64,000 nucleotides of DNA from Myxococcota bacterium (GCA_039028615.1 JBCCHT010000003.1:160001-224000), one strand, 5' to 3'; positions 8,016-33,467 are shown, counted from the stretch's first letter. Notes: generated from the sequence alone by a model not told the origin. Translations and numbers: made by a program.

Positions 8016-8810
8016 CTAGGGCGCGATGGCGCCGAGCTTGTAGCCACCCGTGGCGCCGAGGAAGCCGCGGCTGGCTTGGGCTCGCCAGTCGCCCGCGCCC
8101 AAGGTGTACGAGACGCTGCGGTAGCCGGGCAGGATTCCGGTGTTGCCCCAGACGTCGCCCGGGTCGTCGTTGTTGTAGAGGTAGTGGCTCATGCCAGGCG
8201 AGGTGCCGCCCGTGATCGAGTAGTTGCACACGTGCGAGACATGGCCCGAGGCATCCACGGAGGGGGTGTTCTTGTGCCACGGGAAGCTATTGCCGAACGA
8301 GCCGCTGAAGTACCACTTCCAGTTCCAACCCAAGGAGTCGGCGAGGTCGTCGAACCAGGGGCCGTCGGAAGCGTAGGCGCAGCTGGTGGCGTACTCCCAG
8401 CCGACGGTCGAGCGAAACTGCATCGGCTGGGTGCTCAGCGTGCGCGGGGCATCGTCCGTGACGTCGCCGTGGTGGAGGCGAAGGGCCTCGGGAGCGGCCT
8501 GCTGTGGGGCGAGCGTGGCGAAGATCTCGAGCGGCGTGGCGTGGTGCTGCACGGCGAGGAAGGTCAGCGCGGAGGCCTGCTCGGCTGGGCCCACCTCGGA
8601 CACGACCAACTCTCCGCTGGCCAGCTCACGGAATTCCACGGCCACGCCGCCATCGAGTTCCACCCGCGCCACGAGGTCGGTCAGGTCTTCGGTCTTCTGC
8701 TCTAGCGCGTCGACATCGGAGGTGCCGTCTTCCGGGGCATCACAGGCGACCAGAGCGGTCGATCCGAGGGCAGCGGCGATGAGGGACTGGAGGGCTCTAG
8801 TTTTGTTCAC
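8016..8810 (-). CDS. Hypothetical lipoprotein
   Basis: MNKTRALQSLIAAALGSTALVAC lipobox (GTG 8810); Trp/Tyr/Gly/Asn-rich C-terminal half. Confidence 0.7.
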   Translation of the reverse strand: MNKTRALQSLIAAALGSTALVACDAPEDGTSDVDALEQKTEDLTDLVARVELDGGVAVEFRELASGELVVSEVGPAEQASALTFLAVQHHATPLEIFATLAPQQAAPEALRLHHGDVTDDAPRTLSTQPMQFRSTVGWEYATSCAYASDGPWFDDLADSLGWNWKWYFSGSFGNSFPWHKNTPSVDASGHVSHVCNYSITGGTSPGMSHYLYNNDDPGDVWGNTGILPGYRSVSYTLGAGDWRAQASRGFLGATGGYKLGAIAP

Positions 8811-26315: not shown

Positions 26316-26330
26316 GGGTGTAGCTTGGAT

Positions 26331-26345
26331 TGCAATGTGATTGCA
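26331..26345. promoter_or_regulatory. Palindromic operator TGCAAT-GTG-ATTGCA
   Basis: Perfect 6-3-6 inverted repeat in an AT-rich patch 30 nt upstream of ATG 26376. Confidence 0.5.
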
Positions 26346-26375
26346 CTTGCATTTTGATTGCGTTAGCGTTCGCGC

Positions 26376-30353: not shown

Positions 30354-31118
30354 ATGAGCGAAGCCGACCTCTACCACGCCCTCGTCATGCTGCTGTTCGC
30401 CATCGCGGGGGTGGTCTTTGCCGTGCTCGGCTTGGTCAGCGCGCCCTATGGGCGTCACGCTCGGCAGGGCTGGGGCCCTCGCGTGGGCGAGCGCGTGGCG
30501 TGGATCGTGATGGAGGCGCCGTCGTCGTTGCTCTTCGCGTGGATCTTCTTCCAGGGTCCGCGCGCCTTCGATCCGGTGCCGCTGGTCATGCTGGGCCTGT
30601 GGCAGGCGCACTACCTGCACCGCGCGTTCATCTACCCGCTTCGCAAGCGCAGCCGACCCGGCCAGACGATGCCCCTGGTGGTCATGCTGATGGCGTTGGT
30701 GTTCAACGTCCTCAACAGCTACCTCAACGCGCGGTGGCTGTCGGCGATGGGGCCCGAGTATGCGCTGCGGTGGTTGCTGACCTTCCGCTTCCTGTACGGG
30801 GCGATGCTGTTCATCACCGGGTTCGTCATCAATCGCTGGGCCGACGCTCGGCTCCGCACGCTGCGGCGCCCGGGAGAGAGCGGCTACTCGATCCCCCGCG
30901 GGGGCTTGTTCAACGAGATCTCGTGCCCGAACTACTTCGGTGAGCTCGTGCAGTGGGTGGGCTGGGCTCTGCTCACCTGGTCGCCGGCCGGCATGGCCTT
31001 CGCCGCGTTCACGGCCGCCAACCTGGTGCCGCGGGCGGTGACCCATCACCGTTGGTACGAGCGCACCTTTCCCGGCTACCCGCGGCGTCGCAAAGCGATC
31101 ATCCCTTACGTGCTGTGA
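30354..31118 (+). CDS. 3-oxo-5-alpha-steroid 4-dehydrogenase (steroid 5-alpha-reductase family)
   Basis: APYGRH, AWIVME, HYLHRAFIYP, YSIPRGGLF, SCPNYFGELVQW, NLVPRA, HHRWY. Confidence 0.92.
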   Translation: MSEADLYHALVMLLFAIAGVVFAVLGLVSAPYGRHARQGWGPRVGERVAWIVMEAPSSLLFAWIFFQGPRAFDPVPLVMLGLWQAHYLHRAFIYPLRKRSRPGQTMPLVVMLMALVFNVLNSYLNARWLSAMGPEYALRWLLTFRFLYGAMLFITGFVINRWADARLRTLRRPGESGYSIPRGGLFNEISCPNYFGELVQWVGWALLTWSPAGMAFAAFTAANLVPRAVTHHRWYERTFPGYPRRRKAIIPYVL

Positions 31119-31265
31119 CCCCGTCGGCCGGTCTGAGGGCCGGTCCGTTCATTTTGGGCCGAGCGTTTTGCATCTTTTTGAGCAGCGCACGTCCTAGGTG
31201 AACGACGGGAGCACACGCGCTCCCGGGATCGCCCTGTGTCCGCCGTCATGGCGCCGCCACAGGGG

Positions 31266-31288
31266 TGACATCGATGTCAGGGACTGAC
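31266..31288. promoter_or_regulatory. Candidate upstream activator site for a sigma54 enhancer-binding protein
   Basis: Perfect palindrome TGACATCGATGTCA (31266-31279) overlapping GTCAG-GGA-CTGAC, about 120-130 bp upstream of the -24 box. Confidence 0.5.
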
Positions 31289-31395
31289 GTCCGTGCGGGG
31301 GCCAAGTCGGACTTTTGCGTCATGCTGCTAGGGCAGAACGCGGCGATCTCGCGCCTGTGACGAAATTTCTTCAATGATCTCAGGTGGCGACAGGA

Positions 31396-31411
31396 TGGCA
31401 CGGTGGCTGCA
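31396..31411 (+). promoter_or_regulatory. Sigma54 (-24/-12) promoter
   Basis: TGGCACGGTGGCTGCA with exact GG-N10-GC spacing; predicted start near 31422. Confidence 0.75.
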
Positions 31412-31421
31412 ACTATTGTCG

Positions 31422-32000
31422 AGCGTCGGCGGGGTCGGTCCCAACCTCAACCTCGCAGGCCTCTTACTCTGGCTTGTTCTTGCATCCCTTCCTTTAGCTT
31501 ACTTGCTCCTTAGTTTGATTCGCTTGGCTTAGTGTCTGACTTGGACTGTCACTTTTCTCGACTTGGCTTAACCGACCGTCCTTGGCTTACCTGTTCGACC
31601 CCTTGGCTTGATCGATTCTCTTTGCGCGTCGCTTCGTTTCGTCCCCTTTGCGTACGCCTTGATGTCGCGCCGTTGGCCCTCGCCCCCTGAGGGCCCGGCT
31701 CGCGACTGCGGGCCCGGTGGAACCTGTGCACGTTCCCTGCAGGCATCCCCGATTCCCGGCCCGCCACGATTTCCCTCTGTTAGTCCGTTAGTACTTAGAC
31801 TTGACTTGGTTTGATTCTGGTCGCGTTGGAAAAACTAGTAGTAGTGCGTTAGTCGAACGATAGTTGCCCCACTTAGTCTTAGCTTAGGAATACTCGACGT
31901 TTCGAGTCGTCGTCCCGGAATCGGTGCCCCGGGACTTCCACTCCTTGGTCCGTCACTCCGATTCGAAAGCCCGGGCTCATTCGAGCCCGGGCTTTCGTGT
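31422..32000 (+). ncRNA. Putative ~575-nt sigma54-dependent non-coding RNA with repeated CUUGGCUU/UUAG motifs
   Basis: Bounded by a sigma54 promoter and a terminator; no credible ORF; U/C-rich, stop-codon-rich, interspersed GC hairpins. Confidence 0.6.
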
Positions 32001-32005
32001 TGGTT
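31964..32005 (+). terminator. Intrinsic terminator
   Basis: Perfect 15-bp stem CGAAAGCCCGGGCTC-ATTC-GAGCCCGGGCTTTCG followed by TGTTGGTT. Confidence 0.8.
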
Positions 32006-32113
32006 GTCCTGGTGCTCATCGGGTGCTCGAGCGATGCCCACGCGCTGTCCAAACGGCGCTCAGGCGCGGTTTGTGGCCTGGTAGAGCTGCTGGTCGTTGG
32101 TCACGCTCGAAGC

Positions 32114-32953
32114 ATGACCACGTTTCGTGCCCCCGGATGCTCGCTCGTTCTCGCCATGATGACCACGACCGCGTGCGTGGTGATCGACGGTGGCGACGAC
32201 GATGGTGCGGCGGCGACCGAGGCCGCACCCACCACGACCTCCACGCCTTCGCCGAGCTCCGACGGGGGTGACACGGAGATCACGGGGTCGCCCACCCCCG
32301 AAGACTCGACGGCCGACGAAGGCACGAGTGCGGACACGAGCGGGGGGCAGACCGATGGCGTCGACTCGGGCAGCTCGACCACGGGCATCGAGTGCACGCG
32401 CTTTCTCGAAGGGGAGATCGAAGGCTGTCGCTGTCATGCCTTCGGCGGGCAGGGAGCGGGCCCGTTCTACTGCGGGGCCGATCTGCTCTGCGACGCGACG
32501 ACGGGCACGTGCACCAGCTCCACCGCGTGCGAGACGGTCGAGGCCGACCCCGAGCCGAACGACGGCCCGGACACGGCCACCGACTTCGGCATGGTGTGCA
32601 ACTCGTTGCCCTGGCAGGGCCAGCTCGAGCCGGGGGGCAGCGACTGGTTCACCTGGCGTGGGTTCCACCCCACGGCCGGCTGCGGCGATCCGGGGGGCGT
32701 GCAGACCTACGACCCGAACATCGAGGTCTGCTTCTATCACGCGTGCATCGACGGGCAGGGCGATCTCGGCGAGCTCAGCTGCGGCGGGACGTCGGTCACG
32801 CTCCCCGACGGCACGCCCGGCTGTTGCTCGCCGTCGGCCCAGGGCGACTCGCTCACCGCGTATGCGTGCGACCAGGGCGTCGAGGTCTGGGTCGAGCTGC
32901 GCAACACCACCGAGATGTGCATCGGCTACGAGGCGCAGCTGAACCTGGTCTAA
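32114..32953 (+). CDS. Cys-rich lipoprotein
   Basis: Signal ending TTTAC, Ser/Thr linker, EPND and DWF motifs, many Cys. Confidence 0.75.
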   Translation: MTTFRAPGCSLVLAMMTTTACVVIDGGDDDGAAATEAAPTTTSTPSPSSDGGDTEITGSPTPEDSTADEGTSADTSGGQTDGVDSGSSTTGIECTRFLEGEIEGCRCHAFGGQGAGPFYCGADLLCDATTGTCTSSTACETVEADPEPNDGPDTATDFGMVCNSLPWQGQLEPGGSDWFTWRGFHPTAGCGDPGGVQTYDPNIEVCFYHACIDGQGDLGELSCGGTSVTLPDGTPGCCSPSAQGDSLTAYACDQGVEVWVELRNTTEMCIGYEAQLNLV

Positions 32954-32963
32954 CGCGAGCGGC

Positions 32964-33467
32964 TCAACGCTGCTCGCGTTCTTTGAGGTACTCCTCGAGG
33001 TGCGGGACGATGGGTCGCCGCAGGATCTGCTCGGGAGACTCGAAGCCGGCCCACACGACCTCGCGATTGTCGACGTCGAAGGTCGGCTTCTCGTCGACCT
33101 CGATCTCCACGATCGTGACCTTGTCGTGACGGTTCTCGAACGAGTGCGTGCGGCTATAGACCTCGCTCAGGCGCTCGACGGGGACCCGGAGATCGACCTC
33201 TTCGATGAGCTCGCGTCGCGCCGCCGCGGAGGCGGACTCGCCCGAGCGCACGTACCCGCCGGGCAGCGAGTAGTGGAAGCGGTACGAGTTCTTGATGAGC
33301 AGCAATTTGCCCTCGTGCCACACCGCGACGAGCGCCCCGTGAGTATTCGGATGGCGGACCGCCCAGTACGCGCGGAGCATGCGATGGGCCACCCGGTAGG
33401 CGGTGCGGAAGCCGAGATCGACCATGGAGTCGATGCCCGTCGAGGCGTTGGGGTTGTTGTCGGTCAT
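32964..33467 (-). CDS. NUDIX hydrolase
   Basis: Nudix box PGGYVRSGESASAAARRELIEEVD; ATG 33467. Confidence 0.9.
   Translation of the reverse strand: MTDNNPNASTGIDSMVDLGFRTAYRVAHRMLRAYWAVRHPNTHGALVAVWHEGKLLLIKNSYRFHYSLPGGYVRSGESASAAARRELIEEVDLRVPVERLSEVYSRTHSFENRHDKVTIVEIEVDEKPTFDVDNREVVWAGFESPEQILRRPIVPHLEEYLKEREQR

Follow-up and report, generated by a model that had tools for sequence, protein, structure and literature searches.

Our analysis indicates that a gene-free gap in the genome of a Myxococcota bacterium very probably contains a functional gene for a non-coding RNA whose family has no Rfam entry. The predicted RNA follows a sigma-54 promoter with two upstream enhancer sites, carries many copies of a short word, and has a paralogue at a second locus. 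We consider it reasonably likely, by analogy with CrcZ and CsrB, that this stand-alone RNA titrates an RNA-binding protein through the repeated word. The source genome (G000) is 12.3 Mb with 68% GC, and the stretch of DNA analyzed, here called the window, is 64,000 nt long (G000:C3:160001-224000).

Layout of the predicted RNA gene

The gene lies in the sole gap of about 1 kb in the window (31118-32156, 1037 nt; the runner-up is 412 nt), as an earlier note on this DNA had said. Genome-wide, 174 of the 9111 gaps in G000 are of about this size. Gene starts were taken from our own codon-model caller and carry errors. The features of the region, in window coordinates, are as follows.

30354..31118, + strand: steroid 5-alpha-reductase-like gene (PF02544, from Pfam), upstream neighbour and synteny marker of copy A
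31123-31145: hairpin belonging to the steroid 5-alpha-reductase-like gene
31232..31264, no strand assigned: inverted repeat, CCCTGTG (31232-31238) and CACAGGG (31258-31264)
31266..31279, + strand: enhancer site 1, palindrome TGACA-N4-TGTCA, predicted sigma-54 activator site, core invariant in 8 aligned promoters
31309..31322, + strand: enhancer site 2, degenerate copy of the site-1 palindrome, 43 nt past site 1
31363..31381, + strand: A/T tract between enhancer and promoter, with a CAA-N-GATT-like stretch kept in the promoter alignment
31396..31411, + strand: sigma-54 -24/-12 promoter, TGGC..TGCA invariant in 8 aligned promoters
31422..32003, + strand: copy A of the putative non-coding RNA, about 580 nt, with start and end predicted
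31460..31665, + strand: word array 1, 40% U, with CUUGGCUU four times and 15 of the 24 CYURV words
31664..31770, + strand: GC-rich structured spacer, two hairpins, 74% GC
31770..31890, + strand: word array 2, UUAG/UUAGU-rich, with 7 of the 10 TTAG and 6 CYURV words
31904..31955, + strand: 3' module, a CGGUGC-loop hairpin and then UUGGUC, both words recurring in paralogue B
31964..31997, + strand: intrinsic terminator hairpin, perfect 15 bp, weak U-tail (TGTTGGTTGT)
32156-32953, + strand: secreted-type gene with no Pfam match (own gene calls), between the RNA and the NUDIX gene
32964..33467, - strand: NUDIX gene (Pfam), convergent on the RNA, synteny marker of copy A

The palindrome at 31266-31279 and the sigma-54 site at 31396-31411, both proposed earlier, are present at these positions. 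The second enhancer site had been overlooked and is conserved family-wide. With sites counted under a spacing filter of 36-50 nt, both occur in 79 of 82 non-self promoter matches, 42-46 nt apart in all 79. The distance from site 2 to the -24 element is 78-81 nt in 19 of these, 87-92 nt in 58, and 99-101 nt in 2. A sigma-54 activator requires its sites to be placed in steps of about one helical turn. The phasing seen here is helical, as such a protein needs, which supports the proposal that an enhancer-binding protein activates this promoter. Each of the 85 promoter matches ends in a -24/-12-like scored site, and we take the A/T tract to be a putative IHF bending site. The full enhancer pair plus promoter occurs at three places only in G000: copy A, copy B, and a gene on contig C9. 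The inverted repeat at 31232-31264 is also present, but it had been counted as part of the unit and is absent from four aligned same-genus loci, so that it probably lies outside the transcription unit.

Sigma-54 transcription begins 12 nt past the -12 element; this rule set the start of the copy A RNA, and the terminator set its end. The body had been described as U-rich, and at 0.30 U it exceeds every other 575-nt stretch on the two strands of the window in U content (median 0.15). Its key feature, however, is the repetition of a 5-6-nt word, C(C/U)U(A/G)(A/C/G) (CYURV), with the core URRCUU. The window RNA has 24 CYURV copies compared with 9.8 in dinucleotide shuffles, a count that none of 100 shuffles reached. 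CYURV exceeds dinucleotide shuffles in 15/15 A bodies and 47/49 B bodies, with the word defined on these same sequences and the loci picked by promoter alone. The top hexamer is CUUGGC in A (55 vs 3.8 expected) and UGGCUU in B (170 vs 14.8 expected). The most frequent spacing between words is 5 nt, often in tandem, and several copies show fresh tandem expansions. Among 489,296 segments of 400 nt in the genome, the window body ranks first for its enriched words (30), the words having been chosen from the window RNA itself; the second-ranked segment (22 words) is antisense of a repetitive protein. Other word-dense candidate paralogues in G000, on C18, C10, C16, C27, C11 and C42, were rejected as antisense to repetitive proteins, intragenic, or promoterless.

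The bodies are pyrimidine-rich, A-poor and weakly folded, and partition-function calculations show word array 1 to be mostly weakly paired. Words are slightly less paired than their flanks in A (0.55 vs 0.46; 14/15 copies) and in B (0.53 vs 0.48; 35/49); in the window copy itself this difference is absent (0.47 vs 0.45). The folding z of the whole RNA, -2.28, appears to come from the GC-rich spacer and the terminator; the spacer is present in same-genus copies and missing from shorter ones. The middles of the bodies do not align, whereas the promoter and the last 100 nt do. Orthologue bodies range from about 215 to 605 nt, with about 170-560 nt ahead of the terminal hairpin. Length-variable bodies that do not align are expected if the number of words matters and their position does not.

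The earlier view that the body has no credible open reading frame agrees with our searches, which found neither a conserved nor an SD-led ORF. None of the 15 A copies has an SD-led ORF, 12 of the 15 have no ATG ORF, and no SD-like site precedes any ORF of the window body. When the frames of five same-genus copies were compared by eye, no similarity was visible.

The terminator hairpin at 31964-31997 is a perfect 15-bp stem, as claimed, but it closes with a weak U-tail. Its stem is conserved in same-genus copies and its loop varies. In relatives G047, G049 and G050 the NUDIX gene is immediately 3' of the terminator. Because the convergent NUDIX gene faces the hairpin in most relatives, the terminator alone does not count as evidence of an RNA.

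Distribution of the gene and its promoter

By BLAST, the promoter or 3' end was found in 5/5 same-genus genomes and 8/72 family genomes. A sequence-only promoter model built from 8 promoters matched 57/73 family genomes and 13/17 genera, at 85 listed places, with the 8 training genomes matching by construction. The family is taken to be Nannocystaceae from the named records that carry the promoter pattern, which are Nannocystis, Plesiocystis, Enhygromyxa, Paraliomyxa and Nannocystaceae MAGs. The 85 places comprise 15 complete A copies, 9 A copies with a changed word, and 49 B copies whose end was located. Of the remaining 12, contig ends truncate 2, synteny assigns 5 to B, 4 are word-rich units at other sites, and one is the lipoprotein gene at G000:C9. 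Copy A occurs in 24 genomes, copy B in 55, and both in 23; copy B of G000 is at C5:35487 on the minus strand. Counted with flanks that are short at many loci, complete A copies lie near the steroid gene in 22/24 and near the NUDIX gene in 21/24, and B copies lie near argC in 32/49 and near a convergent gene in 46/49. The conservation in relatives that the earlier note had called for is seen: promoter and word array are both found again in relatives across the family. Its statement that this is no known RNA family also stands: Rfam gave no gathering-level match for the window or for six related loci, and the 7 matches obtained to E 10 are terminator-like noise.

Of 78 loci scored from a collection-wide promoter scan, the 42 labelled as family carried 3-27 words per 250 nt (median about 14). 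The 36 non-family loci carried 0-6, except L186 (16), which has the family body and hairpin. Five promoter-linked, word-rich units lie outside loci A and B (L103, L111, L118, L120 and L162; genera g11 and g12 and a Nannocystis MAG), a possible third paralogue. Nine A orthologues, all in genus g17, keep the promoter and synteny and have the word switched to GGUUG/GGUAG (L073, L074, L077, L080, L096, L101, L102, L108 and L119); B copies of the same genus keep the CUUGG-type word.

Terminal hairpins were found at 73 of the 85 promoter-match places. Automatic terminator calls were wrong or absent at many loci, so RNA ends were re-set by anchors, and 9 of 58 candidate hairpins were dropped by eye. 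YGGTGC is present in 42/49 B copies, where it lies ahead of the terminal hairpin, and in 7/15 A copies. In B, the stem of the terminal hairpin covaries around a near-invariant UGGUC loop. Eleven of its 16 pairs change on both sides (99 cells vs 39.5 +/- 6.5; 0/500 shuffles), and the signal is above every slid control. We count it as supporting evidence only, because the rows were selected for having such a hairpin and the kin are not independent. The window copy matches the B 3' model weakly (13.3 bits, E 0.074) and its terminator differs.

Outside the family, the promoter model gave weak matches only, in 9/150 other genomes of the phylum (E 1.6e-4 or worse), and the B 3' model gave 1 weak match among 101 Polyangiaceae-family genomes. 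Two pattern searches were discarded: a three-word array pattern in 101 genomes of the class did no better than its reversed control, and a sigma-54 plus word pattern in 101 Polyangiaceae-family genomes occurred at about the control's frequency. Evidence from the Polyangiaceae family is thus limited to individually read loci, of which 25 were scored. At two of its loci (L271 and L273) a short sigma-54 unit carries the same words and closes with a hairpin; the B 3' model misses both. In Chondromyces apiculatus (G224), L327 and L328 are paralogous units that resemble each other in 5' sequence and carry the palindromic enhancer and a sigma-54 site; they have no ORF and no word array, and L327 has a terminal hairpin with a GGUC loop.

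The enhancer pair plus promoter was found in Myxococcaceae-family genomes (24/151; control 0) and in one Polyangiaceae-family genome (1/151). In every case the Myxococcaceae-family loci (L241-L264, also L145, L177 and L192) hold one conserved structured sRNA of 80-130 nt with a terminator and no array. This sRNA has a CCAU loop, complementary to AUGG, and the two examples tested had no Rfam match. It is possibly a base-pairing RNA and may already be present in M. xanthus data. Three myxobacterial lineages share the TGACA-N4-TGTCA enhancer, which connects exported lipoproteins with different RNAs. No description of such an RNA or enhancer, nor of any regulatory RNA in Nannocystaceae, was found in the literature searched, in which subscription journals are thinly covered.

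Proposed titration of a partner protein, and alternatives

Under the titration explanation, an activator bound at the TGACA-N4-TGTCA pairs would activate the two RNA copies and, with them, a set of exported-lipoprotein genes. The 10-30 mostly single-stranded words of each RNA would then bind many copies of a protein, for which small glycine/arginine-tailed RRM proteins are candidates, and pull it off mRNAs. This would form a feed-forward circuit, in which the activator transcribes envelope genes while the RNA lifts a post-transcriptional brake; this last step is the weakest.

Strong enhancer sites in G000 precede exported-protein genes in 12/31 cases under a strict signal-peptide rule, compared with 20% otherwise. 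Lipoprotein-like genes follow enhancer sites in G000, and the pattern is repeated in G037 and G059, where 7 such genes were counted by eye at 13 enhancer loci, with one overlapping locus dropped; two of the loci are copy B. At G000:C9, a promoter of the RNA type precedes an ordinary lipoprotein gene. The top enhancer gene of G000 encodes a membrane protein (G000:C54:2050-3974). A homologue from another order, in Chondromyces apiculatus (L270, G224:C33, minus strand; 54% identity over 112 aa), is preceded by a partial enhancer, a sigma-54 site and a leader of about 240 nt with tandem 15-nt GGCUU repeats, and was found by a pattern that demanded the word.

Signals in mRNA leaders are weak. CUURR occurs in the leaders of 129/1177 secreted and 77/1063 cytoplasmic proteins (p=0.003; antisense, 78 and 95), and the secreted count is under the mononucleotide-shuffle expectation (129 vs 160). 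CUUA and UUAG are not enriched in leaders. Two or more words were found in the leaders of 6/31 enhancer genes compared with 148/3687 others in G000, with 3 of the 6 genes known ahead of the test; this was not replicated in G037 and G059 (1/7). A genome-wide strand bias upstream of starts was set aside as confounded by promoter words. We also noted at least 8 paralogous secreted proteins that share an ACGGTFCD start motif, several with word-bearing leaders (for example G000:C56:67369-69171, C3:238139-239938, C20:9734-11551 and C35:125659-127539). Elsewhere in the window, the leader of a FAD-dependent oxidoreductase gene (26316-26375) contains a TGCAA/TTGCA-rich palindromic stretch resembling a regulator site.

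Several candidate activators were considered. None of 29 activators found by regular expression lies near the enhancer-linked genes. PilR was rejected because both pilA-like promoters carry GACA-N5-TGTC, not N4, and NmpR because its binding site, as given in the accessible part of the source, differs from the RNA enhancer (PMC11841059). A GAF-type activator of the nitrate cluster, chosen by eye for its likeness to the DVU1949 recognition helix, occurs in 2/73 genomes with a 69-aa query. The nitrate/nitrite assimilation cluster itself (L291, G000:C50:56591-66784) has CGAC-N6-GTCG sites of a geometry similar to the RNA enhancer. For a REC-type activator (L294:764-3400, G000:C70), the DNA-binding region is present in 71/73 genomes and in 5/5 outside the family; the gene also occurs in genera without promoter matches. 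The REC-AAA-HTH copy on C70 of G000 has no GAFTGA and a shortened AAA domain, and is divergent from a PAS histidine kinase. Strong enhancer sites are absent from glnA, PII, amtB and gltB in G000.

RRM proteins are the leading, though tentative, candidates for the titrated partner, an assignment made by elimination and analogy. No Hfq (PF17209) was found in G000, which is 96.7% complete (the control matched in 5/14), and no cold-shock domain was found; the genome has one CsrA (PF02599) and six RRM proteins. M. xanthus is likewise described as lacking Hfq in the available part of one report (10.1101/2025.09.11.675593). RRM genes are present in 72/73 family genomes, and this co-occurrence is not discriminating since they are also present in four genera without promoter matches. 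The leaders of the RRM genes do not contain the repeated word. Four of these genes (L062-L065) have strikingly purine/A-rich leaders, and their RGG-rich tails end in GRY. The close single-RRM solved relatives of one RRM protein include plant glycine-rich RNA-binding proteins, RBM3 and CIRBP. The accessible text on AtGRP7 gives it a preference for U/C-rich motifs (PMC5663106), and its minimal site UUCUGG is barely enriched here (3 vs 2.4; 13 vs 7.4). Within the titration explanation, we give RRM proteins about half of the share and leave the remainder to some other or unknown protein. The nine A orthologues with GGUUG/GGUAG mean that one fixed partner would need to accept both words.

An alternative that we judge unlikely is that the RNA, possibly after processing, is a trans-acting base-pairing sRNA like Pxr, FopS or RybB that acts through its conserved 3' module (GGUCGGUGC and the UGGUC loop). 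The array would serve only to load a chaperone, for example an RRM protein, and repression of exported-lipoprotein mRNAs by the RNA would form the regulon's negative arm. A simple sponge leaves the conserved 3' words (CGGUGC and the UGGUC loop) unexplained; they are the sole positionally conserved sequence, and the B stem covaries around its loop. According to the portions available, sigma-54-driven Pxr is processed from longer forms (PMC10217877), and RNAs of the base-pairing FopS family have an RRM protein, RbpB, as their binding partner (PMC11697453); in Myxococcaceae the same enhancer is predicted to drive the short structured sRNA. By contrast, exact-complement counts at 8660 G000 starts show no enrichment for complements of the conserved elements, including the 3' words (GCACCGAC, 22 vs 18 antisense). 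The anti-SD word CCUCC is depleted (8 vs 16.9; 14 vs 45.9), which argues against base-pairing. YGGUGC is absent from 8/15 A copies, the covariation signal is partly built in by the choice of rows with a hairpin, and the array makes up most of the RNA.

A quite improbable alternative is that the RNA serves general RNA machinery (Rho, S1 or a ribonuclease) as a decoy or scaffold, or seeds a condensate of glycine/arginine-tailed RRM proteins, with no sequence-specific repressor involved. Ligands of Rho and S1 are pyrimidine-rich, A-poor and weakly folded, as the bodies are; these two proteins would not depend on a specific purine-containing word. Four of the six RRM proteins have RGG-rich tails, and the weak mRNA-leader signal would suit a partner without a sharp target set. 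However, a specific purine-containing word is enriched here far past dinucleotide composition, and the G-rich GGUUG variant of the nine orthologues would be a poor Rho ligand.

It is very improbable that the region encodes no functional RNA and instead holds a relic promoter ahead of low-complexity DNA, a long leader belonging to the next gene, or a gene for a small protein. In favour of this view, the hairpin might act for the convergent NUDIX gene, the ordinary gene at C9 has a promoter of the same type, and there are short frames of 52 and 68 codons with TTG/GTG starts. Against it, the convergent orientation of the next gene in most relatives makes a leader role impossible, the A copies lack SD-led ORFs, the promoter and word array are maintained at two loci in 13 genera, and a single contig, which may be from the source sample, covers the stretch without differences, which speaks against mis-assembly.

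Returning to titration, an RNA present twice across a family, with a defined word, offers a ready bait for whichever protein governs post-transcriptional control in these predators, and cultured hosts exist among the Nannocystis, Plesiocystis and Enhygromyxa records with the promoter pattern. A more specific version, which we regard as possible but doubtful, is a dedicated RRM sponge acting as a Csr/Rsm-like global switch, with eukaryote-like, glycine/arginine-tailed single-RRM proteins reading CUURR. If true, a sigma-54 two-component input would lead through two tandem-expanding decoy RNAs to the freeing of exported-lipoprotein mRNAs, and the GGUUG/GGUAG copies of genus g17 would mark a shift in specificity between paralogues of the RNA and of the protein. 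An RRM partner would also give a class of bacterial RNA-binding proteins that is poorly understood a known binding word.

Comparison with known regulatory RNAs

In the accessible parts of two reports, Pxr is a myxobacterial RNA with a sigma-54 promoter, an upstream enhancer, a terminator, and paralogues in some genera (PMC5684412; PMC5568312), all of which resemble the window RNA. Pxr of Myxococcus and Cystobacter (RF01812) is 108 nt with three stem-loops, whereas the window RNA is about 580 nt with two weakly folded arrays. Pxr adjoins the gene of its sigma-54 response regulator on the downstream side, and the window RNA neighbours the steroid reductase and NUDIX genes or, as copy B, argC. 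The upstream region of Pxr lacks the TGACA-N4-TGTCA enhancer, and its body has 0-1 words. RF01812 has no match in G000. It matched 2/5 named genomes, both Myxococcaceae-type, and was absent from the Chondromyces, Plesiocystis and Nannocystis genomes searched; these five served as the control, since a search across 151 phylum genomes matched nowhere, controls included. By these sequence comparisons, Pxr is unrelated to the window RNA.

FopS and GibS of Bacteroides are, in the portions available, paralogous sRNAs bound by the RRM-1 protein RbpB in a host reported to lack Hfq (PMC11697453; PMC13370968). The likeness lies in the paralogous RNAs and in the RRM-1 genes of the host, six here, whose RNA binding is presumed by analogy. 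FopS differs in that it has a base-pairing seed, is titrated by the protein, and is not sigma-54-dependent, and no word array is described in the accessible text. For Desulfovibrio vulgaris, the part of the report available lists four non-coding RNAs controlled by enhancer-binding proteins, one of them in an envelope-stress regulon, and the predicted sites of its nitrogen regulator DVU1949 share the TGACA-N4-TGTCA geometry (PMC4641369). The site of the ncRNA-linked DVU1419 differs, and these ncRNAs were compared by description only.

CsrB/CsrC and RsmY/RsmZ carry multiple GGA/ANGGA words, mostly in loops, and have variable length and paralogues. The window RNA resembles them in its multi-copy short word, variable length and paralogues, and G000 has a CsrA gene. 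It differs in that ANGGA is at shuffle level (5 vs 6.3; 15 vs 15.6), GGA occurs 0-8 times per A or B body, and the words are not in hairpin loops; it also has a sigma-54 promoter and no Rfam match.

The word of CrcZ is A-rich and binds Hfq. In the accessible text, CrcZ and CrcY of Pseudomonas and Azotobacter are redundant paralogues with RpoN promoters, are controlled by the enhancer-binding protein CbrB, and sequester a translational repressor (PMC6292655). The window RNA is similar as a stand-alone RNA with a sigma-54 promoter, upstream activator sites supported by sequence and phasing, and paralogues. It differs in having no Rfam match, no Hfq in G000, another enhancer sequence, and the word CYURV/URRCUU; AANAA occurs 7 times in the 15 A copies and 24 times in the 49 B copies. 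On these sequence features, the window RNA belongs to neither the CrcZ nor the CsrB family, and if its partner is an RRM protein it would represent a third sponge system beside Csr/Rsm and Crc-Hfq.
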